A stretch of 64,000 nucleotides of DNA from Eukaryota sp. GEM-RC1 (Eukaryota), in NCBI GenBank assembly GCA_040285855.1, contig JAUFOQ010000010.1:682001-746000 (forward strand), read 5' to 3'. This document shows, in pieces, positions 11,252 through 42,469 of the stretch; position 1 is the stretch's first letter, and each line of letters opens with the position of its first letter. Under the pieces are notes generated by a model that did not search any database, was not told the origin of the DNA, and saw nothing but the letters and a program-made list of their open reading frames with translations. The position numbers were made by a program, and so were the translations under genes.

Positions 11252-11519
11252 TACTGTATTCATGTACAAATTTGAGTTATTATAGTAGACATAACCAGCT
11301 ATTCTTGATAAAGATTGTCATTGCAGTCAAATTGGTAGTGTTATATATTGATGACGTGACCAACACTGTCTTATTCCACGCAATGAATAAAAAGATTACC
11401 TAAAACATTATTTTTGGCGATGTAAATATTTTGAATTACAAAGACTTTCAAACCGTAGCGAAAAACTAAACAACCTTTGATAGTCAGACTCTCGTATTTT
11501 ACTGACCATAACAGCCAAG

Positions 11520-17139: not shown

Positions 17140-17998
17140 CAGTCTACCCTCCCATTAGTGCAAGCTTTTGGGCAGACCTTAATGGGAGTTTTACCTTAAT
17201 GGGAGGTTTTGAATGTACAGACATGAACAGCTGACGACAGCTTTTTATGATAAATAAACCAACAAACTATGACTATTGTGCACCATTTGGTGATGAATTG
17301 AAGATGGCACGGATGTACCACCACGGGTAATCGTCGTCCAAATTTAAGTGGTGGGATTGAGGAAAAATATTGCTGAACACTCAATCGTCAGCAAATAGCA
17401 ATAATCTCTCAGATATCTGCTAAATGGATGGATGAGAGAAGGAGAGAACTAGTGCTAACGGGGAGGGCGATATAAGAGCGAGAAAGGTCAAGGATGGATG
17501 GGAAAGTACCAATATAGGAAATGAGAAAGGCTACAACTTCAAATCCAGCAGTTACAGGCATCAGCAGGGGGAGATGTTCATAAGAAGGTCTTCCATTTCA
17601 AGACCATCAACAAGGAGCAACTTTAGAACACTGTCAAGGAGCTCCTCTTCTTCATCATGGATCAGTACGTCCTCTTCTTCGTCGAGGCATTCGCCATGAT
17701 CAAAGCCCAGAGAACTGATGGGATGAAGTCCTATGGATAAGGTATTCATCACAAATCACTGAAGTAACGGATCCAGAGGCTTGTAACTGTTTAACTGGTT
17801 GAAAGTGTCATGAAAAGAAGGTATGTAATGATGTGATACGAAAAATATAAGAGCGAAAAAGTTTATGTTAAGAACTGTAGTGCAATGGCAAGGGCACGGG
17901 AATCAAAAAGATCACGACAAAAAAGCGGGCAGTGAAAATTTTACCTTAATGGGAGGGAAACCTTAATGAGAGGGTGACCTTAATGGGAGGGTAGACTG
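17140..17998. mobile_element. pogo/Tigger-type non-autonomous element
   Basis: Perfect 18-bp TIRs (CAGTCTACCCTCCCATTA), TA on both sides, subterminal CCTTAATGGGAG repeats. Confidence 0.85.
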
Positions 17999-18207
17999 TA
18001 ATAGAATTGTGTTTCTACACTAAATAGAAAATAGTACATTGTAGTTACATATCGGATATCTCCCGTCTCGATCTGTTCCTACCAGATTAACGTATGAAAG
18101 TCCCTTATCAGTTTTGCTAGTGTTTTCAGACTGACGAAGACTGTTTTTGTGTCTACGTGATCAGTGCAACCATAAATAATTTTGCCTGCGTTTTATTTTC
18201 TCCTTGA

Positions 18208-18450
18208 ATGCCAAACTCTTCTCTGACATTGAACCAGAAACGCGGATTGTGCAACTATGCCTCTTCACAAGTACCCTCTCCATCTTTATCTCAACTAGTT
18301 TTGTGCCTTTCAAACACTTTCAACGTAACTGTTGACAACACAACTGTCAGCAAGATTCTTAAAGACACTAACAGGTACCAGCAGCTCCGCATCATGGCTG
18401 TGAATAGAAATCTCAAAAGAATACGAACTGTTGAGTTTCCAGAGAAGCAG
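18208..18450 (+). pseudogene. CENP-B/Tigger-type N-terminal HTH transposase fragment
   Basis: Translates as LTLNQKRGLC...SLSQL...FNVTVDNTTVSKILK...RIRTVEFPE. Confidence 0.6.
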
Positions 18451-19681
18451 GATTTCCCTGTTGCGCTGGTTGGATGTTCAAGAACTTCCGAATTAGTATC
18501 AACAAGAAAAGAACAACGAAAAGACTGAGGACAAGAAACAGCTCTAATACAGTGCAAAAAATCAGAAGAATTTAAATGTTCCACATTCCAAGTCAAAACA
18601 CTGCACATCTCATCAAGAACAAGAATAAGTGGAGTTTTAGTGGAAAGCTTAGAGAAATCTGGAGTTTGAAGTGTTTTGATCAAATCAAGGAATTTGTCAA
18701 CAATTAAGAGTTGTCCTTTAGGACTGGTGGAAAAATGGAACCACAACTTTGGGTCCAAATGTGTTTGTGTACGTTCATAATCCTGAAAGACTTCCACATG
18801 GGCAAACAAAAGCTGTAAAAAAATTGCCTGAATGGCTTCAACATTATTCATGAAACCAGTATTCATGAAATAAGGCCTATTAAAACCGTGTTCTACAACC
18901 AATTTGAAGGGGTGATTCCAGGAGTTCCTGCACCAAAGTTGAGGTAGAATCCAGGATTATTTTCAAGAGCGTCAGCAAGAGCAGCAGTTTTACCAGTACC
19001 TGATCCAGATACAACAAAGGCAATCCTACACCCCACAGCAGCAGCTTCGTCTTGAAGAAAACTTCGAACAGTCTGAGACATACCACTTTCACAGTCAATC
19101 TCAAAAAAAATTCTGTTTGGATTCTGCCTGTAAAAAAAGGGAGAAGGACCAGTCACGGAGCGTAAAAAAGGTGGCTTTATGGTATAATTTTCGTTCTCAA
19201 GTATGGTACATAAACCAGAAGGTGGAAGGTACTGGGAGTGATATAAGACATGGTGGTTGAAATAGGTAAAGTAATTTGGTTCTCCAGGTAAAGTGACAGC
19301 AATGGTAACATCACCGTAAAAACGAGTATGTAGTTCAAACTGGATGAGACGGGGTTTCAAATGAAAAGAGACGGTTTCACCAAGGCGGATATAAGATTGA
19401 AATTTGTCTGTGAGAAAAAATACAACCGTGTTTATGACGAGACAATGTGTCGGTGATTCGAAATATTTCGAAACATATAGTATAATGTTACATCATTTCC
19501 AGATACCAATTAATACGTGGTGTTGTTGAAAACAATAGCAAATGAACTTTTCGATATGACGAGTGTTAATTACCGGGTAAAACTGAAAATCAATCTGTGT
19601 ATGATCGACTGCTAAACTGCTTTGATATTTGTTTATGTGTGACTTATAATGGGGTGATCTTTCTATCAGAGGAAAATATCT

Positions 19682-20265
19682 TTAGAAATGAATTCTATTC
19701 TTGTGTAGTGATTTTAATGATTGTTGTGTTTGACTGTTAATTGAGTTGTTACGTAGATAAATCGTAGACAGTGAAGAATTCACCTTCAAAGCTTCAGCAA
19801 TTGCAATAGCGCCTTCATTACCAATTGAGTTGCTATGTAGATAGATCGTAGAAACAGACGAATTCACCTTCAAAGCTTCAGCAATTGCAATAGCGCCTTC
19901 AGGACCAATTGAGTTGTTATGTAGATAGATCGTAGAAACAGACGAATTTACCTTCAAAGCTTCAGCAATTGCAATAGCGCCTTCATTATCAATTGAGTTG
20001 TTACGTAGATCGATCGTAGAAACAGACGAATTCACCTTCAAAGCTTCAGCAATTGCAATAGCGCCTTCAGGACCAATTGAGTTGTTATGTAGATAGATCG
20101 TAGAAACAGACGAATTCACCTTCAAAGCTTCAGCAATTGCAATAGCACCTTCATTACCAATTGAGTTGTTATCTAGACCAATCGTAGAAACAAACTAATT
20201 CACCTTTAAAGCTTCAGCAATTGCAATAGCGCCTTCAGGACCAGTTGAGTTGTAATGTAGATAGA
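19682..20265 (-). pseudogene. LRR cassette 1 (6 modules + cap; internal TAG at 20195-20197)
   Basis: No in-frame ATG; same cap and stop as the gene. Confidence 0.85.
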
Positions 20266-20847
20266 AATCGGAAATGCTAGCCGGTTCATAGAACCCATAT
20301 CCAGTAAAGAGAAGCTTAGATAATGTTAGATAATAAACTCAATTTAAGATAAACAAAAACCTACTTTGTATGTTAGGACAATTGTGTGACAAGATTTCCA
20401 ATTAAATCACAGATCACTAAAACAGAATCTAACGAACAACCTAATTTTGACCAATATTTAATAAATTACCATGACTAAAATATCTTTGGAGTAGATACAA
20501 AAGGATACTGTACATCTTATAAATCACTAAGAATAATCAAAGCATCACTCAACTCATGGACAATTAAGCTGTTTTTTGAGAAAAAATACAACCGTGTTTA
20601 TGACGCGACAATGTGTCGGTGATTCGAAATATTTCGAAACATATAGTATAATGTTACATCATTTCCAGATACCAATTAATACGTGGTGTTGTTGAAAACA
20701 ATAGCAAATGAACTTTTCGATATGACGAGTGTTAATTACCGGGTAAAACTGAAAATCAATCTGTGTATGATCGACTGTTAAACTGCTTTGATATTTGTTT
20801 ATGTGTGACTTATAATGGGGTGATCTTTCTATCAGAGGAAAATATCT

Positions 20848-21011
20848 TTAGAAATGAATTCTATTCTTGTGTAGTGATTTTAATGATTGTTGTGTTTGAC
20901 TGTTAATTGAGTTGTTACGTAGATAAATCGTAGACAGTGAAGAATTCACCTTCAAAGCTTCAGCAATTGCAATAGCGCCTTCAGGACCAGTTGAGTTGTA
21001 ATGTAGATAGA
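20848..21011 (-). pseudogene. LRR cassette 2 (1 module + cap)
   Basis: Not in the ORF track; has the same junction, cap and spacer as the other cassettes. Confidence 0.85.
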
Positions 21012-21592
21012 AATCGGAAATGCTAGCCGGTTCATAGAACCCATATCCAGTAAAGAGAAGCTTAGATAATGTTAGATAATAAACTCAATTTAAGATAAAC
21101 AAAAACCTACTTTGTATGTTAGGACAATTGTGTGACAAGATTTCCAATTAAATCACAGATCACTAAAACAGAATCAAACGAACAACCTAATTTTGACCAA
21201 TATTTAATAAATTACCATGACTAAAATATCTTTGGAGTAGATACAAAAGGATACTGTACATCTTATAAATCACTAAGAATAATCAAAGCATCACTCAACA
21301 TAACGACAATTAAGCTGTTTTTTGAGAAGAAATACAACCGTGTTAATAACGAGACATTGTGTCGGTGATTCGAATCATTTCAAAACAAAAGAATAATGTT
21401 ACTTCATTTCCCGATACCAATTAATACGTGGTGTTGTTGAAAACAATAGCAAATGAACTTTTCGATATGACGAGTCTTAATTACAGGGTAAAACTGAAAA
21501 TCAATCTGTGTATGATCGACTGCTAAACTGCTTTGATATTTGTTCATGTGTGACTTATAATGGGGTGATCTTTATATCAGAGGAAAATATCT

Positions 21593-21756
21593 TTAGAAAC
21601 GAATTCTATTCTTGTGCAGTGATTTTAACGACTGTTGTGTTTGACTGTTAATTGAGTTGTTACCTAGATAGATCGTAGACAGTGAAGAATTCACCTTCAA
21701 AGCTTCAGCAATTGCAATAGCGCCTTCAGAACCAATTGAGTTGTTATGTAGATAGA
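21593..21756 (-). pseudogene. LRR cassette 3 (1 module + cap; most divergent flank)
   Basis: First module is YLHNNSIGSEG rather than YLHYNSTGPEG. Confidence 0.85.
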
Positions 21757-22335
21757 AATCAGAAATTCTAGCCGGTTTAGAGAACACATATCTAGTAAAG
21801 AGAAGCTTAGATAACGTTAGATAATACACTCAATTTAAGATAAGCAAAGACCTACTTTGTATGTTAAGAGTGCGCGACAAGATTTCCAATTAAATAACAG
21901 ATCACTAAAACAGAATCTAACGAACAATCTAATTTTGACCAATATTCAATAAATTACCATGACTAAAATATCTATGGAACACATACAAAAGGATACTGTA
22001 CATCTTATATATCACTGAGAATAATCAAAGCATCACTCAACTCAAGGACAATTAAGCTGTTTTTTGAGAAAAAATACAACCGTGTTAACAGCGAGACAAT
22101 GTGTCGGTGATTCGAAATATTTCGAAACATATAGTATAATGTTACATCATTTCCAGATACCAATTAATACGTGGTGTTGTTGAAAACAATAGCAAATGAA
22201 CTTTTCGATATGACGAGTCTTAATTACTGGGTAAAACTGAAAATCAATCTGTGTATGATCGACTGCTAAACTGCTTTGATATTTGTTCATGTGTGACTTA
22301 TAATGGGGTGATCTTTATATCAGAGGAAAATATCT

Positions 22336-23507
22336 TTAGAAACGAATTCTATTCTTATGCAGTGATTTTAATGACTGTTGTGTTTGACTGTTAATTGAGT
22401 TATTAGATAGATAAATCGTAGAAACAAACGAATTCACCTTCAAAGCTTCAGCAATTGCAATAGCGCCTTCAGGACCAATTGAGTTGTTACCTAGACCAAT
22501 CGTAGAAACAAACGAATTCACCTTCAAAGCTTCAGCAATTGCAATAGCGCCTTCAGGACCAGTTGAGTTGTAAAGTAGATAAATCGTAGAAACAAACGAA
22601 TTCACCTTCAAAGCTTCAGCAATTGCAATAGCGCCTTCAGAACCAATAGAGTTGTTATTTAGATATATCGTAAAAACAGACGAATTCACCTTCAAAGCTT
22701 CAGCAATTGCAATAGCGCCTTCAGGACCAATTGAGTTGTTCCTTAGATAAATCGTAGAAACTGAAGAATTCACCTTCAAAGCTTCAGCAATTGCAATAGC
22801 GCCTTCATTACCAATTGAGTTGCTATGTAGATAAATCGTAGAAACTGAAGAATTCACCTTCAAAGCTTCAGCAATTGCAATAGCGCCTTCAGGACCAATT
22901 AAGTTGTTATCTAGATAAATCGTAGAAACTGAAGAATTCACCTTCAAAGCTTCAACAATTGCAATAGCGCCTTCATTACCAATTGAGTTGCTATGTAGAT
23001 AAATCGTAGAAACTGAAGAATTCACCTTCAAAGCTTCAGCAATTGCAATAGCGCCTTCAGGACCAATTAAGTTGTTATGTAGATCGATCTGAGAAACTGA
23101 AGAATTCACCTTTAAAGCTTCAGCAATTGCAATAGCACCTTCAGGACCAATTGAGTTGTTATATAGATAAATCGTAGAAACTGAAGAATTCACCTTCAAA
23201 GCTTCAGCAATTGCAATAGCGCCTTCAGGACCACTTGAGTTGTCACCTAGATAAATCGTAGAAACTGAAGAATTCACCTTCAAAGCTTCAGCAATTGCAA
23301 TAGCGCCTTCAGGACCAATTGAGTTGCTATGTAGATCGATCTGAGAAACTGAAGAATTCACCTTTAAAGCTTCAGCAATTGCAATAGCACCTTCAGGACC
23401 AATTGAGTTGTTATATAGATAAATCGTAGAAACTAAAGAATTCACCTTCAAAGCTTCAGCAATTGCAATAGCGCCTTCAGGACCAGTTGAGTTGTAATGT
23501 AGATAGA
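22336..23507 (-). pseudogene. LRR cassette 4 (13 modules + cap, open frame)
   Basis: Open reading frame with no ATG. Confidence 0.85.
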
Positions 23508-24089
23508 AATCGGAAATGCTAGCCGGTTCATAGAACCCATATCCAGTAAAGAGAAGCTTAGATAATGTTAGATAATAAACTCAATTTAAGATAAACAAAA
23601 ACCTACTTTGTATGTTAGGACAATTGTGTGACAAGATTTCCAATTAAATCACAGATCACTAAAACAGAATCTAACGAACAACCTAATTTTGACCAATATT
23701 TAATAAATTACCATGACTAAAATATCTTTGGAGTAGATACAAAAGGATACTGTACATCTTATAAATCACTAAGAATAATCAAAGCATCACTCAACTCATG
23801 GACAATTAAGCTGTTTTTTGAGAAAAAATACAACCGTGTTAACAACGAGACAATGTGTCGGTGATTCGAAATATTTCGAAACATGTAGTATAATGTTACA
23901 TCATTTCCAGATACCATTTAATACGTGGTGTTGTTGAAAACAATAGCAAATGAACTTTTCGATATGACGAGTCTTAATTACCGGGTAAAACTGAAAATCA
24001 ATCTGTGTATGATCGACTGCTAAACTGCTTTGATATTTGTTTATGTGTGACTTATAATGGGGTGATCTTTATATCAGAGGAAAATATCT

Positions 24090-24337
24090 TTAGAAATGAA
24101 TTCTATTCTTGTGTAGTGATTTTAACGACTGTTGTGTTTGACTGTTAATTGAGTTGCTATGTAGATAAATCGTAGAAACAGACGAATTCACCTTCAAAGC
24201 TTCAGCAATTGCAATAGTGCCTTCAGGACCAATTGAGTTGTTACCTAGACCAATCGTAGAAACAAACGAATTCACCTTCAAAGCTTCAGCAATTGCAATA
24301 GCGCCTTCAGGACCAGTTGAGTTGTAATGTAGATAGA
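24090..24337 (-). pseudogene. LRR cassette 5 (2 modules + cap)
   Basis: Open reading frame with no ATG. Confidence 0.85.
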
Positions 24338-24920
24338 AATCGGAAATTCTAGCCGGTTCATAGAACCCATATCCCGTAAAGAGAAGCTTAGATAATGTTA
24401 GATAATAAACTCAATTTAAGATAAACAAAAACCTACTTTGTATGTTAAGACAATTGTGTGACAAGATTTCCAATTAAATTACAGATCACTAAAACAGAAT
24501 CTAACGAATAACCTAATTTTGACCAATATTCAATAAATTACCATGACTAAAATATCTTTGGAATAGATACAAAAGGATACTGATACATCTTATAAATCAC
24601 TAAGAATAATCAAAGCATCACTCAACATAACGACAATTAAGCTGTTTTTTGAGAAAAAATACAACCGTGTTAATAACGAGACACTGTGTCGGTGATTCGA
24701 ATCATTTCAAAAGAAAAAGAATAATGTTACATCATTTCCAGATACCAATTAATACGTGGTGTTGTTGAAAACAATAGCAAATGAACTTTTCGATATGACG
24801 AGTCATAATTACCGGGTAAAACTGAAAATCACCCTGTGTATGTACAACTGCCAAACTGCTTTGATATTTGTTCATGTGTGACTTTTGATGGGGTGATCTT
24901 TATATCAGAGGAAAATATCT

Positions 24921-25504
24921 TTAGAAACGAATTCTATTCTTGTACAGTGATTTTAATGATTGTTTTGTTGGACTTTTAATTGAGTTGAAACATAGATCGA
25001 TCGTAGAAACTGAAGAATTCACCTTCAAGGCTTCAGCAATTGCAATAGCTTCTTCATTACCAATTGAGTTGTCACCTAGATAAATCGAAGAAACAGACGA
25101 ATTCACCTTCAAAGCTTCAGCAATTGCAATAGCGCCTTCATTACCAATTGAGTTGTTACCTAGATTGATCGTAGAAACAGACGAATTCACCTTCAAAGCT
25201 TCAGCAATTGCAATAGCGCCTTCATTACCAATTGAGTTGTTATATAGATAAATCGTAGAAACAGAAGAATTCACCTTCAAAGCTTCAGCAATTGCAATAG
25301 CGCCTTCAGAACCAATTGAGTTGCTAAATAGATCGATCGTAGAAACAGAAGAATTCACCTTCAAAGCTTAAGCAATTGCAATAGCACCTTCAGGACCAAT
25401 TGAGTTGCTACGTAGATCGATCTGAGAAACTGAAGAATTCACCTTCAAAGCTTCAGCAATTGCAATAGCACCTTCAGGACCAGTTGAGTTGTAATGTAGA
25501 TAGA
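24921..25504 (-). pseudogene. LRR cassette 6 (6 modules + variant cap; TAA at 25368-25370)
   Basis: Variant cap LCFNSIKSPTKQ; 3' part identical to cassette 7. Confidence 0.85.
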
Positions 25505-26087
25505 AATCGGAAATTCTAGCCGGTTCATAGAACCCATATCCCGTAAAGAGAAGCTTAGATAATGTTAGATAATAAACTCAATTTAAGATAAACAAAAACC
25601 TACTTTGTATGTTAAGACAATTGTGTGACAAGATTTCCAATTAAATTACAGATCACTAAAACAGAATCTAACGAATAACCTAATTTTGACCAATATTCAA
25701 TAAATTACCATGACTAAAATATCTTTGGAATAGATACAAAAGGATACTGATACATCTTATAAATCACTAAGAATAATCAAAGCATCACTCAACATAACGA
25801 CAATTAAGCTGTTTTTTGAGAAAAAATACAACCGTGTTAATAACGAGACACTGTGTCGGTGATTCGAATCATTTCAAAAGAAAAAGAATAATGTTACATC
25901 ATTTCCAGATACCAATTAATACGTGGTGTTGTTGAAAACAATAGCAAATGAACTTTTCGATATGACGAGTCATAATTACCGGGTAAAACTGAAAATCACC
26001 CTGTGTATGTACAACTGCCAAACTGCTTTGATATTTGTTCATGTGTGACTTTTGATGGGGTGATCTTTATATCAGAGGAAAATATCT

Positions 26088-26923
26088 TTAGAAACGAATT
26101 CTATTCTTGTACAGTGATTTTAATGATTGTTTTGTTGGACTTTTAATTGAGTTGAAACATAGATCGATCGTAGAAACTGAAGAATTCACCTTCAAGGCTT
26201 CAGCAATTGCAATAGCTTCTTCATTACCAATTGAGTTGTCACCTAGATAAATCGAAGAAACAGACGAATTCACCTTCAAAGCTTCAGCAATTGCAATAGC
26301 GCCTTCATTACCAATTGAGTTGTTACCTAGATTGATCGTAGAAACAGACGAATTCACCTTCAAAGCTTCAGCAATTGCAATAGCGCCTTCATTACCAATT
26401 GAGTTGTTATATAGATAAATCGTAGAAACAGAAGAATTCACCTTCAAAGCTTCAGCAATTGCAATAGCGCCTTCAGAACCAATTGAGTTGCTAAATAGAT
26501 CGATCGTAGAAACAGAAGAATTCACCTTCAAAGCTTAAGCAATTGCAATAGCACCTTCAGGACCAATTGAGTTGCTACGTAGATCGATCTGAGAAACTGA
26601 AGAATTCACCTTCAAAGCTTCAGCAATTGCAATAGCACCTTCAGGACCAATTGAGTTGTTATATAGATAAATCGTAGAAACTGAAGAATTCACCTTCAAA
26701 GCTTCAGCAATTGCAATAGCGCCTTCAGGACCAATTGAGTTGCTACGTAGATCGATCTGAGAAACTGAAGAATTCACCTTTAAAGCTTCAGCAATTGCAA
26801 TAGTGCCTTCAGGACCAATTGAGTTGTTACCTAGACCAATCGTAGAAACAAACGAATTCACCTTCAAAGCTTCAGCAATTGCAATAGCGCCTTCAGGACC
26901 AGTTGAGTTGTAATGTAGATAGA
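26088..26923 (-). pseudogene. LRR cassette 7 (9 modules + variant cap; TAA at 26535-26537)
   Basis: Shares the stop and 3' modules with cassette 6. Confidence 0.85.
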
Positions 26924-27505
26924 AATCGGAAATTCTAGCCGGTTCATAGAATCCATATCCCGTAAAGAGAAGCTTAGATAATGTTAGATAATAAACTCAA
27001 TTTAAGATAAACAAAAACCTACTTTGTATGTTAAGACAATTGTGTGACAAGATTTCCAATTAAATTACAGATCACTAAAACAGAATCTAACGAATAACCT
27101 AATTTTGACCAATATTCAATAAATTACCATGACTAAAATATCTATGGAACACATACAAAAGGATACTGTACATCTTATAAATCACTAAGAATAATCAAAG
27201 CATCACTCAACTCATGGACAATTAAGCTGTTTTTTGAGAAAAAATACAACCGTGTTAACAGCGAGACAATGTGTCGGTGATTCGAAATATTTCGAAACAT
27301 ATAGTATAATGTTACATCATTTCCAGATACCAATTAATACGTGGTGTTGTTGAAAACAATAGCAAATGAACTTTTCGATATGACGAGTCTTAATTATCGG
27401 GTAAAACTGAAAATCAATCTGTGTATGTTCGACTGCTAAACTGCTTTGATATTTGTTCATGTGTGACTTATAATGGGGTGATCTTTATATCAGAGGAAAA
27501 TATCT

Positions 27506-27921
27506 TTAGAAACGAATTCTATTCTTATGCAGTGATTTTAATGACTGTTGTGTTTGACTGTTAATTGAGTTGCTACGTAGATCGATCTGAGAAACTGAAG
27601 AATTCACCTTTAAAGCTTCAGCAATTGCCATAGTGCCTTCAGGACCAATTGAGTTGCTATGTAGATAAATCGTAGAAACAGACGAATTTACCTTCAAAGC
27701 TTCGACAATTGCAATAGCGCCTTCATTATCAATTGAGTTGTTACATAGATCGATCGTAGAAACAGACGAATTTACCTTCAAAGCTTCAGCAATTGCAATA
27801 GCGCCTTCAGGACCAATTGAGTTGTTATGTAGATAGATCGTAGAAACAAACGAATTCACCTTCAAAGCTTCAGCAATTGCAATAGCGCCTTCAGGACCAG
27901 TTGAGTTGTAATGTAGATAGA
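27506..27921 (-). pseudogene. LRR cassette 8 (4 modules + cap)
   Basis: Open reading frame; no N-terminal start (one internal Met only). Confidence 0.85.
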
Positions 27922-28503
27922 AATCGGAAATTCTAGCCGGTTCATAGAAACCATATCCCGTAAAGAGAAGCTTAGATAATGTTAGATAATAAACTCAATT
28001 TAAGATAAACAAAAACCTACTTTGTATGTTAAGACAATTGTGTGACAAGATTTCCAATTAAATTACAGATCACTAAAACAGAATCTAACGAATAACCTAA
28101 TTTTGACCAATATTCAATAAATTACCATGACTAAAATATCTATGGAACACATACAAAAGGATACTGTACATCTTATAAATCACTAAGAATAATCAAAGCA
28201 TCACTCAACTCATGGACAATTAAGCTGTTTTTTGAGAAAAAATACAACCGTGTTAACAGCGAGACAATGTGTCGGTGATTCGAAATATTTCGAAACATAT
28301 AGTATAATGTTACATCATTTCCAGATACCAATTAATACGTGGTGTTGTTGAAAACAATAGCAAATGAACTTTTCGATATGACGAGTCTTAATTATCGGGT
28401 AAAACTGAAAATCAATCTGTGTATGTTCGACTGCTAAACTGCTTTGATATTTGTTCATGTGTGACTTATAATGGGGTGATCTTTATATCAGAGGAAAATA
28501 TCT

Positions 28504-29339
28504 TTAGAAACGAATTCTATTCTTATGCAGTGATTTTAACGACTGTTGTGTTTGACTGTTAATTGAGTTGTTACGTAGATCGATCTGAGAAACTGAAGAA
28601 TTCACCTTCAAAGCTTCAGCAATTGCAATAGCACCTTCAGGACCAATTGAGTTGTAATGTAGATAGATCGTAGAAACAAACGAATTCACCTTCAAAGCTT
28701 CAGCAATTGCAATAGCGCCTTCAGGACCAGTTGAGTTGTAATGTAGATAGATCGTAGAAACAAACGAATTCACCTTCAAAGCTTCAGCAATTGCAATAGC
28801 GCCTTCAGGACCAATTGAGTTGTTACATAGATCGATTCTAGAAAGTGAAGAATTCACCTTCAAAGCTTCAGCAATTGCAATAGCGCCTTCAGGACCAATT
28901 GAGTTGTTATATAGATCGATTCTAGAAAGTGAAGAATTCACCTTCAAAGCTTCAGCAATTGCAATAGCGCCTTCAGGACCAGTTGAGTTGTAATGTAGAT
29001 AGATCGTAGAAACAAACGAATTCACCTTCAAAGCTTCAGCAATTGCAATAGCGCCTTCAGGACCAATTGAGTTGTTACATAGATAGATCGTAGAAAGTGA
29101 AGAATTCACCTTCAAAGCTTCAGCAATTGCAATAGCGCCTTCATTACCAATTGAGTTCTTACGTAGATCGATCTGAGAAACTGAAGAATTCACCTTCAAA
29201 GCTTCAGCAATTGCAATAGCGCCTTCAGGACCAATTGAGTTGTTATGTAGATAGATCGTAGAAACAAACGAATTCACCTTCAAAGCTTCAGCAATTGCAA
29301 TAGCGCCTTCAGGACCAGTTGAGTTGTAATGTAGATAGA
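28504..29339 (-). pseudogene. LRR cassette 9 (9 modules + cap, open frame)
   Basis: Largely collinear with the LRR region of the gene, with module substitutions. Confidence 0.85.
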
Positions 29340-29921
29340 AATCGGAAATTCTAGCCGGTTCATAGAAACCATATCCCGTAAAGAGAAGCTTAGATAATGT
29401 TAGATAATAAACTCAATTTAAGATAAACAAAAACCTACTTTGTATGTTAAGACAATTGTGTGACAAGATTTCCAATTAAATTACAGATCACTAAAACAGA
29501 ATCTAACGAATAACCTAATTTTGACCAATATTCAATAAATTACCATGACTAAAATATCTATGGAACACATACAAAAGGATACTGTACATCTTATAAATCA
29601 CTAAGAATAATCAAAGCATCACTCAACTCATGGACAATTAAGCTGTTTTTTGAGAAAAAATACAACCGTGTTAACAGCGAGACAATGTGTCGGTGATTCG
29701 AAATATTTCGAAACATATAGTATAATGTTACATCATTTCCAGATACCAATTAATACGTGGTGTTGTTGAAAACAATAGCAAATGAACTTTTCGATATGAC
29801 GAGTCTTAATTATCGGGTAAAACTGAAAATCAATCTGTGTATGTTCGACTGCTAAACTGCTTTGATATTTGTTCATGTGTGACTTATAATGGGGTGATCT
29901 TTATATCAGAGGAAAATATCT

Positions 29922-31779
29922 TTAGAAACGAATTCTATTCTTATGCAGTGATTTTAACGACTGTTGTGTTTGACTGTTAATTGAGTTGTTACGTAGATCG
30001 ATCTGAGAAACTGAAGAATTCACCTTCAAAGCTTCAGCAATTGCAATAGCACCTTCAGGACCAATTGAGTTGTAATGTAGATAGATCGTAGAAACAAACG
30101 AATTCACCTTCAAAGCTTCAGCAATTGCAATAGCGCCTTCAGGACCAGTTGAGTTGTAATGTAGATAGATCGTAGAAACAAACGAATTCACCTTCAAAGC
30201 TTCAGCAATTGCAATAGCGCCTTCAGGACCAATTGAGTTGTCACATAGATCGATTCTAGAAAGTGAAGAATTCACCTTCAAAGCTTCAGCAATTGCAATA
30301 GCGCCTTCAGGACCAATTGAGTTGTTATATAGATCGATTCTAGAAAGTGAAGAATTCACCTTCAAAGCTTCAGCAATTGCAATAGCGCCTTCAGGACCAA
30401 TTGAGTTGCTATGTAGATAAATCGTAGAAACAGACGAATTTACCTTCAAAGCTTCAGCAATTGCAATAGCGCCTTCATTACCAATTGAGTTGTTACATAG
30501 ATAGATCGTAGAAAGTGAAGAATTCACCTTCAAAGCTTCAGCAATTGCAATAGCGCCTTCATTACCAATTGAGTTCTTACGTAGATCGATCTGAGAAACA
30601 GAAGAATTCACCTTCAAAGCTTCAGCAATTGCAATAGCGCCTTCAGAACCAATTGAGTTGCTAAATAGATCGATCGTAGAAACCTCATTTCTCACCATCT
30701 CATCATAAAAACTCTTCAACTTAGAGCTAAGCTTGCTCCAATCAATAACAAGTTTCTTCTCTTCAACTTGTTGTACAGGGCAGACACTTTCAATACACTT
30801 GATTGGTAAAGGAGGGTCTTCTAAAAGCCTATCAGAAGCAACGCTAGACTCCGAATCAACAGAAAGAGAGGTCAAACGACGAGAAGCATCGGAGTGGATG
30901 GAGAACAGTTCTTCATTTAAATAGGAGATGATATCAGATTGGTTGTTGAGAAGGGTTGAAGTGGTGGTAGTGAATTTTTCGCTGATCTTTGGCTTAAACA
31001 CGACAGGTTTCCCAGATTGTAAGTTATTCATAATGGTAGCAGAATCTAACATAGTTTCTTGCAAAATGACAGTCAGACTTTCTTTGAGTTGGACAAAACC
31101 ATTTGTTGCTTGCTGGATGGCAGCTTCAGCTGACTGTGATATTTTTCAATGGCTAACGACAACTCTTGATTAATGGAGTTAATATTCTTTTCAATGGAGG
31201 TTCGACCTTCATTGAAGGGAAGCAACTTCTTTTGTGTTGGTCATGGTCACCAAGGAAAGCACACGTGGAACAAAGGGCAACGGAGCAGAAGGTGCAGAAC
31301 AACTCTAACGACTTCATACTGTGGCTGGGGCACTTGGGAACAAGGTAGGCATGCTTCTTATTTAGGGGGACAGCAACATGAGATCGTAGCACCTTAGGGC
31401 GATGAGCAGGGTTAAAACAGTCGTCACAGAAATCAGTGTCACATTCTGCGCAATAACAAGTGGCAGCAGCTTCATCACACTCAAAACAAATAGTCTCACC
31501 CTGACCAGCAACGAAGGCTTCAACAGCTTCTTTCAACTTGTAGTTAGGACACAGCCTTGACTTGTCCACTTCAGCTCGACAGATCGGACATCCGTTATGA
31601 GAAACAAGCCACTCCTGCAAGTCCGACATACAAAAGGTGTGGCCACACCAAGTAGTTACCGGATTCTTGAGAATTTCGTGACAAATATCACAGAGATAGT
31701 GAGACATTTGAGGAAGAAAATAGTCCGCAGTCGAAGAGTTCATTCTGGAAAACTCCGACATCATTTTGTCGCACGACAT
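29922..31779 (-). CDS. TRIM-like E3 ligase (RING, B-box, B-box, coiled coil) fused to 8 RI-like LRRs + cap; ~619 aa after restoring two 1-bp homopolymer deletions
   Basis: RING CDIC..CGHTFC..CPIC; B-boxes CFECD..CAEC..CDDC..H..H and CPSH..CTFC..CSTC..H..H. Adding one base to each T runs at 31230-31233 and 31142-31146 joins ORFs 31153-31779 and 29922-31064 through a helical segment (HKKKLLPFNEGRTSIEKNINSINQELSLAIEKISQSAEAAIQQ). Confidence 0.85.
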
Positions 31780-32585
31780 TTTTTTCCCTTCTCGGGTTCT
31801 TTTTCAACCTCTTCCAACAGTTACAGTACCATATATAAGCCAGGATCGATACCTTATCTTTGCAACAATCACACACATCCAATCTAGCTTAACCGGGATC
31901 ATTGGTTTTTATTTTTGACTTTCAGAAAGAGCAGATAACAGAGAGTATTGTTTCTTAGGCAGCAAAAGAAACAAGGGGTAAACTTAAGACATGAGCTTCC
32001 CCTTTTTCATCACCAATCGTCTGCTCTTTTCGTTGTCATCTTGGGAATACGATTTTAGGTGTGTCTGTACTTCTTGAATATATTACCCTATCTTTTCATA
32101 TCCCTCTTGTAGATTCTCTTCTTTAAGAACACTCTTCTCTAGCAATGTTAATGCTGCTATTGTCGTCTCAATGCTTTGAAGGGGTTCTTCTCTTCACATA
32201 TTCAATTCTGCGTACTAACTCAGAAGAAGTTCTCTGTGATTTGTTTCTTTGAGTATCTGAAACTTTCTCCTTTCCTATATTGGTAGTTTCAGGTCCGTCC
32301 TTGACCTTTCTCGCTCTTATATCGCCCTCCCCGTTAGTTCTGGAAGCAAAGTTAGGTCTGAAGCAAAGTTTGAGGTACCTTTAAATCTCTACTAAATCCT
32401 ATCCAAAAACCCATGTTTCTCTTATCGCCTCTGCACCAAGCCTGGGTCGGTTACAATCTTTGATTTCGCTCCTTGGGTTACTTTACCTTGGGTTATACCA
32501 AACAAGGTAAATATAACAAAACAACCGAAAACGGTGGCATCAAACTGTTGATGGTGTCAATACGACAACACCAAAGTTTTTCGTT

Positions 32586-36211: not shown

Positions 36212-37184
36212 TATGTATACTAAAGTAGTTATTTACGCTTTCACAATAGCTCAGCTATCATCTATTGTTATTTTGGAGAAAAGATCGCAGAGTCATCAAG
36301 GCATATACACTGTCATAGCTTAATCGATTACGTAATTTTGTGACAGTACATCCAGCAAAAAAAAATACTTGGTTCTAAGAAGAAGTTGTGGCTTGAATTG
36401 CAAGAAAGTGCCTTGCAATTTTGGAAAGTCCACTCAAAAGCATTTCTAGATGAGCACCGCCACTTCAATGAATCTTTGTCTGGTCCGATTATTTTTCCGC
36501 AAGATATTTAGTAATTTTGGTAGATTTTAATTGTTAATTTTAGGGAGACATCTTGCCTTTCGACAAAACCAATTTTCGAGAAGTAGTTCCACTCGATATA
36601 CTTCGTTGGAGAAATAGGGCGAGTTTCAGGTTGGGGTTCAGGTTGGGGTCAGCTTCAGGTTGAGATTGAGGTTCCTCTCCCAAAAGATATTGTATATCAG
36701 AAATGTAAGAAAAATGTGTATTATATGATTCCAGGTAAACAAAAAACAATTGATAAAAATAAATAGAACCATATGGTTCGTGGTTCTGGTTTGGTTCAGA
36801 CGTCTATGGTACTGGTTTGGTGTGATTTAGACGTTTGTGGTTCTGGGTTGGTTTGGTTCAAATTTTGAGAACGAAAACCAAACCAAACCAATCCATTACA
36901 ATCCCAAATTTCCACAGTGTTAATTTGGATAGAAAACGGATGAAACTCAAATGGATGGTGTCGACGAGAATTCAAATTTACAATTAGAACAATCATGAAC
37001 TAAATGTGATCCTTTCAGCAGTTTCCAGAGTTAAGATTATTTCATTTGATCCAATTCCTTTCGTTAATTACTGTAATGTGTTAGCCACAGGTGTTAGTGA
37101 AGTGTTACTAGTACGTATAATTTGATTTATAAACACCCTTTACCTTCCCCTTTGCACCTTTAGGTATTAATAATTATTATCCTC

Positions 37185-39413
37185 ATGGTAAAAAAGAGGA
37201 ATCTTACTACAGCTGCTCCTAAGAAAGGAGTTACTAACCGCAGACAGCCAAGTAGGTCTGTCAAAAAGACCAGAGTATCGAAGAGCTCTGCCACCCCGAT
37301 CGAAGTGCCTACTGAATCCTCAGTAGATGAAGAGGACTTTGTGTCCGAACTCTCCTCACCCGAGAGTCTCTCCTCACACGAGAGCCCATCTTCAAACGTT
37401 GATGGAAGTTCCTTGGCTTCTTCGGAAGCCGGCGAAACGACTGGTATAAGACCCTTGGGCTCTTCGGAGTCTGGCGGCAACCCTGGTCCTTTGGAGTCAT
37501 CCATTGGACCAGAACAGGAAGATCCTCTTGGAATCAAGAAGGTTCTGGAGAAATACGGAGTCCCCGTTATGTTTTCAGATACCACTAGTACTCCGGGAGA
37601 CAATGTTGTGGGTAATGCTACTTCGTCTGCAGTTCAGCCAACATCATTGCCATCTCATCATGTTTCTGATTCTTCCTTGTTAGTTAGTAGTTTATTAAAT
37701 AAAGATAACGTTGATCCTTCAGTTCCTCTGTCTAGAGAGGTTGAAGAGAGCCTTAGGCAACTTCAAACAGTCCTAGCTCAGCATAAGACCAGGGCAGAAG
37801 AAGCAAAACGACAGCTTCTGGAGCAACAGCAAAAAACAGCTAATCTTTCCATGACTGAGAGAGCTCTAGCTGTAGAACAACAAACCGGTTATGTGTCTAG
37901 ACCTCATAGAGATGCAGTTCCCAACGATCTCATCCCGTTTGTAAGTCCGTACGATCAGAGTGTCTCCATCTCTGACTACGACTTGTGGCATCTTGCCAAA
38001 TTTGCTCCCTGGCATCCCACTTTGCGTCATAGAAAGCCTGCTGGAAGACATTACTTGCTGAAAAATGTTCCTCCTGGCACGTCTCCTCAAGCCATAAAAC
38101 AGTTTTTAGGTGACTTATATGATAGTAGAGCTGGTGATACTTATAGGTTTCCTTCCACCTACTCTTGGGATCCTAGACATGGTATCATCATTGAACCTTT
38201 AGTCCAGATATTCAGTGCTGATGGTCAGTCAGTTTCATATGAATACTCCGCCTGGTACTTACATTCGTTGAACAATAAACGCAAGTTATATCACAACGTT
38301 TCTGTAAGTACCGAATGGCTCCCTACTGGTCATCAGTATAGTCATTTACCTGCGGCGACAAGAGTTCTGGATAGTTTGTCAACTTCACCACAAGATGTTG
38401 ACTCTGTCCCTGTTCAACCTTTTTCTGGAATTGGTGGTTCCCAATTGGTACTCCCATTAGCTTCTCAAGCTATGTGTGAAAAAGCTACATTTGCTCCGAA
38501 CCTTTCTGATTTAAATGGCTTAGATAGTGTTCAAAGATTCTTCCCTGGTGAAGTTTACAGACCTGAGCAGGTCGATAGATTTACACACGGCCTTAGAGAT
38601 GGTATCTCTACCCAAAATTTTGAAGCTCAATTTGGTGGTGAAGAAAGATTCATCAGCTTAGAAGAACATGAAAGTGTTTATCGTAAGCCAGAAGGCTTTG
38701 CTAAAGGTTGTGATGAATCTATGTCCATGGCTCTCTCCTCAGAACAGCTTGCTCAAAATAGAAAAAATCATGTTGCTCACATGACCAGAAGTAGAAAAAC
38801 TCCTAAACGATCAAATTCGATCGAGATAAGTGATCTGACTTCTCAATCAAAATCACCTTTGGCAGAACTTTCTGATGTCACTGACTCTATGTCTGAAGAT
38901 AGCTCATCTGAAGACGAAGAACCGAACGTTTTGGCTGATACTCCCATCATTTTGTCTGGTGTCCCTCAAAGAAAAGATCGAACAAAGAAAAAGTCCATTT
39001 CAAAGAAATCAAGACCCAGCTGCCTCAAATCCGAGAGTCGCGAGGACATAATTAAGTTCATCCATGAATTTAGTTATTGGGCAATTCATGTCCGGAAACA
39101 ATCAAATCGTAAAGACTTTGACACTCGTTTAGGTATCGCTCCAATCAATAAATTTGATCTCGTAAGACTCACTTTGTTAGAGATTGATCCTACTGGTGTT
39201 TCCGAATTCATTGATCGTCAATTGCTGAGTGACTGGAAGCTTCTAAATGTTCCAGGTCCAGATTCAAACATAACTGAAAAAGACCTTTGGTTCAGATTGG
39301 TTCTCCTGAGCCAATACACTTCTACTACTCAAGCTATGGGTGATCTGAAGAATCTTAGACTTAGTCAATCTAATGATCCTAATCTAATGATGGTATTGAT
39401 TGTCCACCCATGA
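37185..39413 (+). CDS. ORF1/Gag-like protein (Ser-rich, no zinc knuckle seen)
   Basis: 742-aa ORF starting 15 bp after the 5' LTR. Confidence 0.75.
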   Translation: MVKKRNLTTAAPKKGVTNRRQPSRSVKKTRVSKSSATPIEVPTESSVDEEDFVSELSSPESLSSHESPSSNVDGSSLASSEAGETTGIRPLGSSESGGNPGPLESSIGPEQEDPLGIKKVLEKYGVPVMFSDTTSTPGDNVVGNATSSAVQPTSLPSHHVSDSSLLVSSLLNKDNVDPSVPLSREVEESLRQLQTVLAQHKTRAEEAKRQLLEQQQKTANLSMTERALAVEQQTGYVSRPHRDAVPNDLIPFVSPYDQSVSISDYDLWHLAKFAPWHPTLRHRKPAGRHYLLKNVPPGTSPQAIKQFLGDLYDSRAGDTYRFPSTYSWDPRHGIIIEPLVQIFSADGQSVSYEYSAWYLHSLNNKRKLYHNVSVSTEWLPTGHQYSHLPAATRVLDSLSTSPQDVDSVPVQPFSGIGGSQLVLPLASQAMCEKATFAPNLSDLNGLDSVQRFFPGEVYRPEQVDRFTHGLRDGISTQNFEAQFGGEERFISLEEHESVYRKPEGFAKGCDESMSMALSSEQLAQNRKNHVAHMTRSRKTPKRSNSIEISDLTSQSKSPLAELSDVTDSMSEDSSSEDEEPNVLADTPIILSGVPQRKDRTKKKSISKKSRPSCLKSESREDIIKFIHEFSYWAIHVRKQSNRKDFDTRLGIAPINKFDLVRLTLLEIDPTGVSEFIDRQLLSDWKLLNVPGPDSNITEKDLWFRLVLLSQYTSTTQAMGDLKNLRLSQSNDPNLMMVLIVHP

Positions 39414-42400
39414 CAATTCCATTTTATGATGAATCTGTCACTGTATTACGCCCTCCTAGAAGGCTTAACCCTGAAAAACAGCGAATAGCCGAAGAAATTT
39501 TTAATGAACTTATACGACAAGGATGGGCCGTACCATCAACTGGTAAGTTCAGTAGTCCCATAGTCTTGGTGGTATATAATGATCACCGTAAGCCTCGTTT
39601 AACTGGAGATTTCAGTGGACCTGATGGGATTAATGCTAATACCAGACCGGTGAAACCAAATTTACCACGGATCTGTGATGTTCTAGAGTTCCTTTCCAAA
39701 GCTAATTTCATTGGAACACTTGACCTTCCTAAAGCATTCTGGCAGCTAAATGTAGCTGAAGAAGATGTCGAGAAGACCAGTGTGTCTATACCTGGAATGT
39801 CTATTAGCTTTAAACGAGCATGTTTTGGATTGAAAAACGTACCAGCAATCTTTCAAAACATCATGATGGAAATTTTCAATGTCGAAGGTGTTTTCATTTA
39901 TATTGATGATATAATTGTTGTAGGCAATACCTTTGAAGAGTTTATTTCAAGAATATATCTAGTACTGGAACGAGCAGAACGTTTTAGAGTACGGATTGGA
40001 TTGAAGAAGTGTAGGTTCACCACTTCTAGACATCCTAATAAGATTCTGGGCAGCAACTTTTGTAATAAAACCCGTTGCATAGATGACAAAAGAGTTTCGG
40101 CGTTGATTGAGTTACCTGCTCCTTCAACTTTACCTGAAGTAAGAAGTTTACTTGGTGCTTTAAATTATGTTCGTGAATGGATTCCAAACTACTCGAACTT
40201 GACTGCATCAATCAATGAACTGACTCGTGGTAAACCCAAGAGAATTGCTTGGACAAAAGACCATGATGCTTTATTAGACAAAATTAAAACTGAAATAATA
40301 AACCATATGGCTTTAGACTTACCTGATACTGATAAGAACATTATCATATCAACTGATGCATCCGACATTGCTGTTGGTGGAGTGATCTGGCAGGAAGAAA
40401 ATCCTCCAGCTCCTCCAGGTACTCCGTTAGAAGAACGTAGAGTTAGACCTGTATCGTTTTATAGCCGTTTACTCAATGATAGTCAACAGAATTGGGCAGC
40501 TATCCAGAAAGAGCTGTATGCCATTCTCTTGATTCTGACCGAATCTAGTTTAGAAGGTTTCCTATTAAGTAGGCATTTGACGATCTTTACAGATCATAGG
40601 AACCTTGCTTATCTGATTTCAGCTCCAGAGAAGAATCGTATTGTCAAACGATGGATTCCAATTTTCTCGGAGTTTGATTTTGAGATAGAGCATGTAGCTG
40701 GTACAAACAATCAATGGGCTGACATGTTATCACGTGTCATTGACCGTCGCCCAGTTGAAACAATCAAATCTCTGTTGATCTCAAATCATACCATCAAAAA
40801 TGATATAATTCTTTCTCACGAAGTTTTAATCTATGATGAAGCTGATTACGTTGAGATGCTTCCTTGTAACACCAACATACTAGCTATCAAGAGTCTACAA
40901 GACCTCTCAACATACAATAAATTGCCTTTATTTGATTCTTGGTTATCAACCATTCGAGCTGAACAACATAAAGCTATCAATGAAGGAGATCAAATGTTTC
41001 AGGATTCAACACTGTGTACTATGAGCAATGTATACATCAACTCCAAGAACAAGATTTTGATTCCATCTAGTTTGAGGACGAAAGTTCTTTACACGCTACA
41101 TGGATTAGTCCAGTCAGGACATCCAAACAAGAAACGAAGTTTGGAAATATTGTTCAATAGTGGTTACTTTTGGCCAAGTATGAAAGCTGACATGGTCAAA
41201 CATGTTAAGCAATGCCCTGCGTGTCAGAAAACGGCACCTGTCCCTAAAAAGATAATTGAATCGACGGGTTCTCTATGGGCTGATAGACCTTTTGCTAGAC
41301 TTAATGTCGACACAATTGGTCCACTTCCAAAAGATCAAAATGGAAACCAATTCCTATTGGTGTTTGTAGATTCTTTCACCAGATACACCATTTTGAGCCC
41401 CCTCGAAGAACTTAACAGTAGAGAAGTAGCATATCGTCTTGTGTGGGATGTGATTGCTATCTTTGGAATACCGTTTTGTATCCATAGTGATAATGGTACC
41501 GAGTTTGCCAATGCTATTTTCGAGGCAATATGTAACCTACTGGCGATTGAAGTAAGTCGTTCGATTCCTCATTTCTCCCAGAGTAATGGACTGGTGGAAC
41601 GACGTCACAGAGACGTTCTGCAAAGCCTACGTCGTCTTCTTGTGGACTTCAATGATTATAACAATTGGTCAACGTACATTCCAACTGTACAATTGCAAAT
41701 CAACGCAACGAATAGTTCTGTGACTGGGCACTCACCTTATGAATTGATGTTTGGTAGTGACATAAGTCCTGGTGCAGATCCTAGTAATTTACTAGCTGCT
41801 GTTGAGAAATCCACAAAGAATGTTCCGTTTATTAACGACATTAAAATGAAACTGGATCGTCTTACTAAAAAGAGAGAAGAGGCAGAGGTTCGTCAATCGA
41901 GACTCAAGCCAAAGAAGAAGTCTGGCCCCAGTCAATCATTCAATGTTGGAGACCTTGTTTTAAAAGCATCCAAAACTAGTAAGCTTCATGGTAATTACAC
42001 TGGACCTTATTTAGTTGTCTCAATTGATTCGAAATCGTCAGTTTCCTTAAAGAATCTGATCACTGGATATGTTAGTAAAACTAGCATTCATCAATGTAAG
42101 ATCTTTCAATCAGATCTACCTGCTGATCATGTTCTCCACAGAGCAATTGCTTCTGGGGATTCTGAAGAACACATCGTGGTTAAGATCCTAGATAGGTTCA
42201 ATACACCCGATGGTGAACATCGTACTGTTCTTTGGTTTGGTGGTGATACTTCATCAGTTCCCACCAAGGACATCAAGAACACCAAGGCGTACAGTGAATT
42301 TGTAAAATTAGAAAATGTAGATTTATTTTGTAATAGTAGAAACGTAGCTAAGAGTAAACCCACTAAGCTTAAACGTACCTCAAGTAGTATGAGTATTCCA

Positions 42401-42469
42401 AAGTCATCGTCTGTAGTTAAGACACCTGTAGCTAAGAGGACAAGGAGCTCAAGAAGAGAGAAGAGGTAA
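39410..42469 (+). CDS. Pol: reverse transcriptase, RNase H, integrase, degenerate chromodomain
   Basis: Motifs LDLPKAFWQ, YIDD, TDASD, TDHRNL, HHCC (H..H..CPAC), HSDNG, NGLVER and GPY; C-terminal IVVKILD..VLWFG. Confidence 0.93.
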   Translation: MTIPFYDESVTVLRPPRRLNPEKQRIAEEIFNELIRQGWAVPSTGKFSSPIVLVVYNDHRKPRLTGDFSGPDGINANTRPVKPNLPRICDVLEFLSKANFIGTLDLPKAFWQLNVAEEDVEKTSVSIPGMSISFKRACFGLKNVPAIFQNIMMEIFNVEGVFIYIDDIIVVGNTFEEFISRIYLVLERAERFRVRIGLKKCRFTTSRHPNKILGSNFCNKTRCIDDKRVSALIELPAPSTLPEVRSLLGALNYVREWIPNYSNLTASINELTRGKPKRIAWTKDHDALLDKIKTEIINHMALDLPDTDKNIIISTDASDIAVGGVIWQEENPPAPPGTPLEERRVRPVSFYSRLLNDSQQNWAAIQKELYAILLILTESSLEGFLLSRHLTIFTDHRNLAYLISAPEKNRIVKRWIPIFSEFDFEIEHVAGTNNQWADMLSRVIDRRPVETIKSLLISNHTIKNDIILSHEVLIYDEADYVEMLPCNTNILAIKSLQDLSTYNKLPLFDSWLSTIRAEQHKAINEGDQMFQDSTLCTMSNVYINSKNKILIPSSLRTKVLYTLHGLVQSGHPNKKRSLEILFNSGYFWPSMKADMVKHVKQCPACQKTAPVPKKIIESTGSLWADRPFARLNVDTIGPLPKDQNGNQFLLVFVDSFTRYTILSPLEELNSREVAYRLVWDVIAIFGIPFCIHSDNGTEFANAIFEAICNLLAIEVSRSIPHFSQSNGLVERRHRDVLQSLRRLLVDFNDYNNWSTYIPTVQLQINATNSSVTGHSPYELMFGSDISPGADPSNLLAAVEKSTKNVPFINDIKMKLDRLTKKREEAEVRQSRLKPKKKSGPSQSFNVGDLVLKASKTSKLHGNYTGPYLVVSIDSKSSVSLKNLITGYVSKTSIHQCKIFQSDLPADHVLHRAIASGDSEEHIVVKILDRFNTPDGEHRTVLWFGGDTSSVPTKDIKNTKAYSEFVKLENVDLFCNSRNVAKSKPTKLKRTSSSMSIPKSSSVVKTPVAKRTRSSRREKR

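Follow-up and report, generated by a model that had tools for sequence, protein, structure and literature searches.

Probable recombination among leucine-rich repeats of a TRIM-like gene and its nine headless tandem copies in Eukaryota sp. GEM-RC1

The NWD/HNWD genes of Podospora anserina (het-d, het-e, het-r) carry a WD40 repeat system (PMC1805685 and PMC2873952, in the parts cited here) in which highly similar repeats within a gene recombine into chimeric repeats and a few surface codons are under diversifying selection; repeat number varies among isolates, and expressed copies exchange sequence with non-expressed ones. For the ROCO genes of Ectocarpus (PMC3341825, PMC11378527) and the leucine-rich repeat (LRR) genes of Tetrahymena with 90-bp exons (PMC6564038), the cited parts describe LRR shuffling in which each LRR is its own exon, with diversifying selection, high birth and death, and nearby non-coding LRR units proposed as a reservoir. 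The variable lymphocyte receptor (VLR) loci of lamprey and hagfish, as covered in the cited part of PMC3308329, have LRR cassettes that flank the gene, patchwork modules and copying guided by short homology, together with incomplete germline genes, unchanged donors and somatic assembly tied to CDA enzymes. Here, we describe a gene with a TRIM-like head and an LRR tail, behind which nine copies of its 3' end lie in tandem, each lacking the head. It lies on the minus strand of contig JAUFOQ010000010.1 of Eukaryota sp. GEM-RC1, in a window (the whole stretch of DNA analysed) of 64,000 nucleotides.

The explanation that we favour, and regard as probable, is ordinary homologous recombination among modules of about 91% identity, combined with selection, with the headless copies ("cassettes") as an incidental reservoir.

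The gene and its headless copies

The gene (31779-29922, minus strand) showed a TRIM-like RING/B-box/B-box/coiled-coil/LRR architecture, in which the coiled coil is a likely one. Its RING finger scored above the Pfam cut-off (zf-C3HC4_2, E 1.6e-9), zf-B_box matched two stretches (E 1.7e-11), and LRR_6 repeats were found at 29922-31145. The Pfam scan returned these three domain types only, with neither NACHT nor WD40, and the gene was therefore not assigned to the NWD/STAND group. A crude heptad scan of its paralog P0015 peaked at residues 159-197, in the region of the putative coiled coil. Head and LRR part were joined into one gene because P0015 aligned by tblastn across three successive frames of the window, with identities of 94%, 83%, and 93%.

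The array was read from one assembled sequence of one strain, from which the unit order and all mosaic tracts reported below were taken. It occupied 11.3 kb of the minus strand (19411-30690), more than the span named in an earlier, sequence-only reading of this DNA. A constant block of 42 bp was present in 59 copies at 84-bp steps, grouped in ten runs of which the first belonged to the gene. The remaining runs formed nine cassettes with 51 LRR modules of 84 bp, numbered u1 to u9 outward from the gene (u0), so that cassette k of the sequence-only reading is u(10-k). Each cassette began with a partial module from position 56 (the lead), followed by full modules (9, 4, 9, 6, 2, 13, 1, 1, and 6 in u1 to u9), a cap, a stop and a spacer. 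The junction of spacer and module position 56 was a single old non-homologous join common to all nine. Modules were contiguous at exactly 84 bp and free of introns, rather than each forming an exon. Identity between the 59 modules averaged 90.7% (minimum, 82%), and 42 were distinct.

The cassettes look silent: they were headless, the open stretch ahead of the lead held no in-frame ATG, and two independent stop lesions were present, a TAA common to module 5 of u3 (u3.m5) and u4.m2 and a TAG in u9.m1. No frameshift was found in the 51 cassette modules.

By match of names, we take Eukaryota sp. GEM-RC1 to be Skoliomonas sp. GEMRC, a free-living anaerobic metamonad according to the cited part of PMC11316075. 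The four longer homologs at E ≤ 1e-10 (from 94 candidates) were all Eukaryota sp. GEM-RC1 proteins, as were all seven matches to the linker (of 291), at identities of 49-91%. Full-length paralogs with the RING/B-box/coiled-coil/LRR architecture were P0002, P0003, P0005, P0011, and P0015, and more distant relatives shared the head and had other C-terminal tails, RRM-like and SPRY-like as judged by eye. Swapped C-terminal domains, some of them SPRY-like by eye, were also seen in a broader RING/B-box family of the GEM-RC1 and TZLM1-RC proteomes (P0019, P0023, P0024, P0025, P0027, and P0028). At least three LRR motifs were present in 3 of the 150 best matches to the head (two GEM-RC1 proteins and one from Rotaria magnacalcarata); the RING/B-box/LRR combination is not unique to this lineage. 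With cassette u1 as protein query, 21 LRR proteins were retrieved at E ≤ 1e-60 (12 from GEM-RC1, 4 from Capsaspora, 5 others), and no cassette-like protein model was among them. A metagenome scan with P0015 produced 110 pattern matches and, from these, a single locus, whose LRR was distant (34%) and was not used.

The P0015 model (985 aa) contained one RBCC head and three blocks of linker and LRRs; its linkers differed by 0-2 residues in 95, and the LRR modules of the blocks differed. Judged on this protein model, P0015 probably stands for another locus at which headless tails follow in tandem, joined at a junction of independent origin. No account of the family or of this layout was found in the literature searched; "leucine-rich" had 0 occurrences in the main text of PMC11316075, whose supplements were outside the search and may bear on novelty.

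Probable recombination and selection, and competing explanations

Two recent perfect duplications were found in the array (Table 1). A 1418-bp duplication made u1 from the tail of the gene and the start of u2, and a 1167-bp duplication made u4 from u3; both were in module register, with junctions inside modules. The sequence-only reading had held that u1 follows the module order of the gene with two modules replaced, YLHN for DLFS and YLHY-T for YLHS. The shared order and both differences were observed, but YLHN is the first module of u2 and not a replacement, since the lead and m1 of u1 lie inside the perfect 1050-bp repeat and equal those of u2; this difference marks the duplication junction. 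That u4 and u3 differ by three modules was borne out (six versus nine full modules) and is accounted for by the 1167-bp duplication. Since the 1418-bp duplication, the copies have come to differ by three events: a tract in u1, identical to u1.m6-m7 or gene m5-m6, turned YLHS into YLHY-T; one base in gene m5 (30242) changed AAC to GAC at surface codon 23; and one base differs at 30600, at the end of the DLFS tract. Once the duplications are accounted for, two conversion-like patches remain, the DLFS tract and u1 m3-m4.

Whole-unit duplication with point mutation did not suffice to explain the array, as the sequence-only reading had argued, and a simple duplication tree did not describe it. Among the seven distinct spacers (nine minus two identical copies, with the last, truncated spacer left out), 151 of 406 informative site pairs were incompatible with one tree, and compatibility between neighbouring sites far exceeded that after shuffling (p 5e-5 to 1.5e-4). 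The non-adjacent spacers S3_4 and S7_8 had a run of about ten sites in common. The 42 distinct modules, taken without lead half-modules and with the final two codons masked in cap modules, had 131 incompatible site pairs among 325. At synonymous module sites, 7 of 15 pairs were incompatible, against 0.07-0.17 expected in tree-only simulations (p 0.002, 0.035, and 0.043 under three rate models). Short tracts of 80-150 bp were common to copies out of order. The IGLGNNSI sequence reported for cassettes 4, 5, and 7 was confirmed, with an identical variable half in u6.m12, u5.m1, and u3.m1.

Seven two-parent junctions were mapped, all of them clean single switches between two parents. Four lay in or almost wholly in the 42-bp block, one half in it and two wholly outside; because the block makes up half of each module, four of seven is no enrichment. 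The left end of the DLFS tract also fell outside the block, which the gene lacks upstream of the tract, and no hairpin was found in the block (z +1.95). The junctions outside the block and the switches in the LRR-free, mosaic spacers indicated that the block is merely part of the homology and not a special site. The sequence-only reading was thus upheld in calling for conversion or unequal exchange and not in channelling that exchange through the constant block.

The first module of the gene, reported inside cassettes 6 and 7, was recovered there as a 90-bp DLFS module with flank that occurred exactly three times in the window (30594, 26424, and 25257). CAG at codon 18 was present in ten modules; nine had TCTTCA before it and gene m1 alone had TCTTCT, a haplotype otherwise confined to u3.m5, u3.m6, u4.m2, and u4.m3. 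Since u1.m2, the very recent duplicate of the gene module, keeps TCTTCA, the gene changed after the 1418-bp duplication, which has since gathered one point change. We judge with some confidence that the tract was copied from a cassette into the gene: a single copy event from u3 or u4 would suffice, whereas the reverse would need a mutation, a conversion, spread within u3 and the 1167-bp duplication, all in a short time. Upstream of the tract, the donor module is interrupted by a stop. Because phenylalanine at codon 22 was found in 0 of 54 modules of eight paralog proteins, a donor outside the locus was not apparent among these eight. Tract flow was not one-way, as cassette u1 (m3-m4) also received a tract.

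In the LRR consensus LxxLxLxxN (LxxLxLxxNxL), the x positions face the concave surface of the domain. The modules matched ribonuclease-inhibitor-like (RI-like) LRR structures by sequence, and by the established consensus codons 18, 20, 22, and 23 are predicted surface positions. These four codons had taken 21 non-synonymous steps on 9.9 sites (2.13 per site), compared with 16 synonymous steps on 21.0 sites (0.76 per site) in the whole module (surface excess, p 0.0016). Non-synonymous change in the remaining codons was below neutral (0.32 per site, p 0.011), and sets of five or six x positions chosen a priori gave p 0.005 and 0.012. The same four codons varied in the 54 modules of the eight paralog proteins, while the rest were nearly fixed. 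Neither this concentration of variation nor the RING/B-box/coiled-coil/LRR make-up of the gene had been recognised in the sequence-only reading. When the 11 copies from the two perfect duplications were dropped, the 48 remaining modules held 21 singleton codons; nine fell on the four surface codons, all in cassettes u3 and u6 (p 0.0014). The other 12, also all in cassettes, comprised two stops and mostly amino-acid changes and were drift-like. Twenty four-residue surface combinations occurred in cassettes and were absent from the gene. In our reading, the cassettes drift now but keep variants that were selected earlier in a coding context.

Under the favoured explanation, unequal crossover would expand and contract the array, conversion would move tracts between any copies in any direction, and selection would likely diversify the four surface positions of each LRR. 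The cassettes would be silent archives of earlier selected repeats and may occasionally return a tract to the gene, as was likely the case for DLFS; dedicated machinery would not be required. To judge from its domains, the protein would recognise a variable target by means of its LRR face and attach ubiquitin to it, which would probably serve defence against microbes or viruses.

Several points weigh against this explanation. The selection test was home-made and based on minimal numbers of steps among alleles, and the sites behind its strongest form were chosen post hoc. Tests of the pairwise homoplasy index (PHI) type along the 84-bp module were weak (p 0.075 for nucleotides, 0.37 for the variable half, 0.037 for codons), so recurrent mutation may account for part of the mixing below module level. 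For the cassette-to-gene direction, the evidence is one synonymous single-nucleotide polymorphism (SNP) together with timing, and conversion is formally inseparable from two successive unequal crossovers. Finally, the gene is split in this sequence by two 1-nt breaks, both in A-runs (near 31230 and near 31140), and 123 A/T runs of at least 4 were counted in six window open reading frames (ORFs) that are unbroken, a biased count because these ORFs were picked as unbroken.

Among 13 family proteins, the window's own included, four had the first break, one only the second and eight neither; in the paralog models, the first recurred in P0012, P0013, and P0016 and the second in P0095. We lean slightly toward recurrent homopolymer error over real decay; such error fits the breaks because they assort at the same two A-runs among near-identical paralogs. 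Inherited decay with conversion fits too, and slippage-based phase variation is a third option. The recent surface change in the gene fits its ongoing use.

The rival that survives best, although we hold it to be unlikely, is a dedicated system: selection would maintain the headless copies as a library of donors, and the gene would serve as an expression site that is altered by directed conversion or tail-switching deletions, as in VLR assembly or antigenic variation. In its favour are the tract that likely moved from a stop-carrying cassette into the gene, the cassette-only surface combinations, the surface singletons of u3 and u6, and the absence of frameshifts from the 51 cassette modules. 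The two conversion-like events against one point change (surface codon 23 of the gene) since the 1418-bp duplication also speak for it, as does the seemingly similar array of P0015. However, the gene has a full LRR array rather than the incomplete form of a germline gene, and the donors are altered: cassettes recombine mutually, one of them received a tract, and spacers recombine as freely. The constant block showed neither enrichment of junctions nor a hairpin, and no candidate enzyme was seen near the array. The proposition that a free-living anaerobic metamonad keeps silent LRR cassette libraries behind TRIM-like ligases and rewrites their binding face by conversion or tail switching, as a unicellular, intracellular counterpart of VLR at more than one locus of the family, is likewise a speculative one to which we give little credence.

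It is improbable that the unit order and some of the mosaic arose as artefacts when a repetitive array was assembled or polished. Such artefacts could account for two perfect long repeats (1050 and 1179 bp) and two homopolymer breaks in the gene, and related named genomes were, according to the cited part of PMC11316075, assembled from Nanopore reads with Illumina correction. Majority polishing would, however, erase rather than make the multi-SNP minority haplotype blocks that are common to non-adjacent copies. Moreover, the 59 modules comprise 42 distinct sequences, the junctions are clean and keep the register, variation falls on surface codons as in the paralogs, and at most the two perfect duplications could be false.

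We give still less weight to the cassettes being alternative terminal exons that are spliced to the RBCC head in a Dscam-like manner. An AAG|GT donor-like site is present in each module, a CTAAC...AG stretch lies in compatible phase in the spacer ahead of the lead, and the three alleles of one spacer site all encode glycine in that frame. Such a phase match is expected in one of three cases by chance, however, and the same spacer stretch has five amino-acid changes across copies; three cassettes carry stops, and the gene has its own stop and cap. Targeted adenine mutagenesis like that of diversity-generating retroelements was rejected, unless it were codon-specific, because silent adenines (CTA at codon 21, GCA at codon 5, AAC at codon 24) were untouched in 42 of 42 distinct modules, even though most alleles at codons 20, 22, and 23 depart from AAT/AAC solely in their first two bases.

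Coordinates and surroundings of the array

Table 1. Positions in the window of the gene, its cassettes and the repeats and tracts that connect them; numbers in brackets are those of the sequence-only reading.
Feature	Position	Strand	Description
Gene, 5' part	31153..31779	-	RING finger, B-box 1, B-box 2; frame breaks near 31230; Pfam zf-C3HC4/U-box and tblastn with P0015 residues 1-164
Coiled-coil start	31127..31234	-	Second frame, between two 1-nt A-run breaks; tblastn with P0015 159-193, 83%; uninterrupted in paralogs
Gene, 3' part	29922..31145	-	Remaining coiled coil; linker; first half-module (DLFS) followed by 8 complete RI-like LRR modules of 28 aa; cap and stop
DLFS tract, 90 bp	30594..30683	-	Identical to 26424-26513 and 25257-25346; only in gene, u3 and u4
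Spacer, one of nine	29340..29921	-	Non-coding; about 580 bp between a stop and the following lead; 0-8% difference between copies; mosaic
Cassette u1 (9)	28504..29339	-	Lead half-module, 9 modules, cap; from 1418-bp duplication
Patch in u1	28982-29061	-	Conversion-like
Cassette u2 (8)	27506..27921	-	4 modules
Cassette u3 (7)	26088..26923	-	9 modules; TAA stop at 26537
Cassette u4 (6)	24921..25504	-	6 modules; same TAA at 25370; from 1167-bp duplication
Cassette u5 (5)	24090..24337	-	2 modules
Cassette u6 (4)	22336..23507	-	13 modules, open frame, most private surface variants
Cassette u7 (3)	21593..21756	-	1 module; lead and upstream spacer divergent
Cassette u8 (2)	20848..21011	-	1 module; u9-type lead joined to u9.m6 type
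Cassette u9 (1)	19682..20265	-	6 modules; TAG stop at 20196
Last spacer, truncated	19411..19681	-	Ends at 19411 against unrelated P-loop-like ORF fragment
Perfect repeat pair, 1050 bp	29192-30241 = 27774-28823		Period 1418 = 746 + 8 x 84; maximal exact matches
Perfect repeat pair, 1179 bp	25471-26649 = 24304-25482		Period 1167 = 747 + 5 x 84; maximal exact matches

The spacer end before u7 (21730-21850) was the most divergent of the array, with ten private changes and a different lead half-module; it is either the oldest copy or an import from another locus. At the far end of the array, the truncated last spacer adjoined a P-loop ATPase-like ORF (18291-19411) with two overlapping frames and no start, for which a protein atlas search gave weak, unnamed matches only; the abutment at 19411 suggests a deletion or a fusion. 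No second copy of the spacer's distal half was found within the 64-kb window. The A6 run at the end of the last spacer had raised the possibility of a retrocopy origin, which was dropped because the gene's own flank has the same run.

Upstream of the gene, 75 bp (32263-32337) matched, inverted and at 92%, an element at 17141-17999 that is flanked by TA and has terminal inverted repeats as well as subterminal repeats of 17 bp; we take it to be a non-autonomous mariner/pogo-like element. Two Ty3/gypsy-type copies (1-2050 and 37075-42561) were 99.2% identical and in opposite orientation, the right one with intact gag-like and pol ORFs and 92-bp terminal repeats. A gag-like ORF with a zinc-knuckle-like motif (11518-12576) lay between 123-bp direct repeats (97.6%), as in a small non-autonomous long terminal repeat (LTR) element. 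Two further LRR_6 genes of 84-bp period (3196-4549, broken near 3990-4020, and 7841-9034) belonged to another subfamily with diverged repeats. A RING and Sel1 gene at 58266-60020, with near-identical 108-bp repeats, was a second RING ligase with a homogenised repeat tail.

Comparison with known systems

The head of the gene resembles that of TRIM (RBCC) E3 ligases, which form dimers and in the cited part of PMC5620554 consist of a RING, B-box 1, B-box 2, a coiled coil and a variable C-terminal binding domain; a coiled-coil-like stretch takes the corresponding place here. The locus differs in that an LRR array, diversified by recombination between repeats, takes the place of the C-terminal domain. 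It extends repeat reshuffling, a strategy described for genes of non-self recognition in fungi and for LRR receptors in algae, to a TRIM-like ligase and to protists of metamonad type. One stretch of 11 kb displays, base by base, duplications together with conversion tracts and surface codons under selection, and the return of sequence from a broken copy to its gene can be put to the test there.

With the Ectocarpus and Tetrahymena genes, the locus shares LRR shuffling in a non-animal eukaryote, diversifying selection and nearby LRR units that may act as a reservoir. Whereas in those genes, in the accounts cited, each LRR is a separate exon, the modules here form one reading frame with junctions inside modules, and the donors are whole tails with cap and 3' flank.

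The locus bears on the question of cassette-based receptor diversification in unicellular eukaryotes. As at VLR loci, presumably non-expressed LRR cassettes, the nine headless copies, flank the gene, their modules form a patchwork, and short homology would guide the copying. In contrast to the incomplete germline genes and unchanged donors described for VLR, the gene is complete with its cap, and the cassettes have been rearranged and overwritten. The likeness to the NWD repeat system of Podospora is closer: both have highly similar repeats within a gene (here mean 90.7%, minimum 82%), recombination with chimeric repeats, and a few surface codons under apparent diversifying selection. One polarised tract may reflect exchange between a presumably expressed and a presumably silent copy. 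The array differs from NWD genes in its 28-aa RI-like LRR repeat, in a RING/B-box/coiled-coil head instead of HET-NACHT, in its metamonad-type host, and in the position of its presumed non-expressed repeats directly behind the gene, as nine headless tandem 3' copies. By this analogy, the array would work like the Podospora NWD repeat system and not like programmed VLR assembly.

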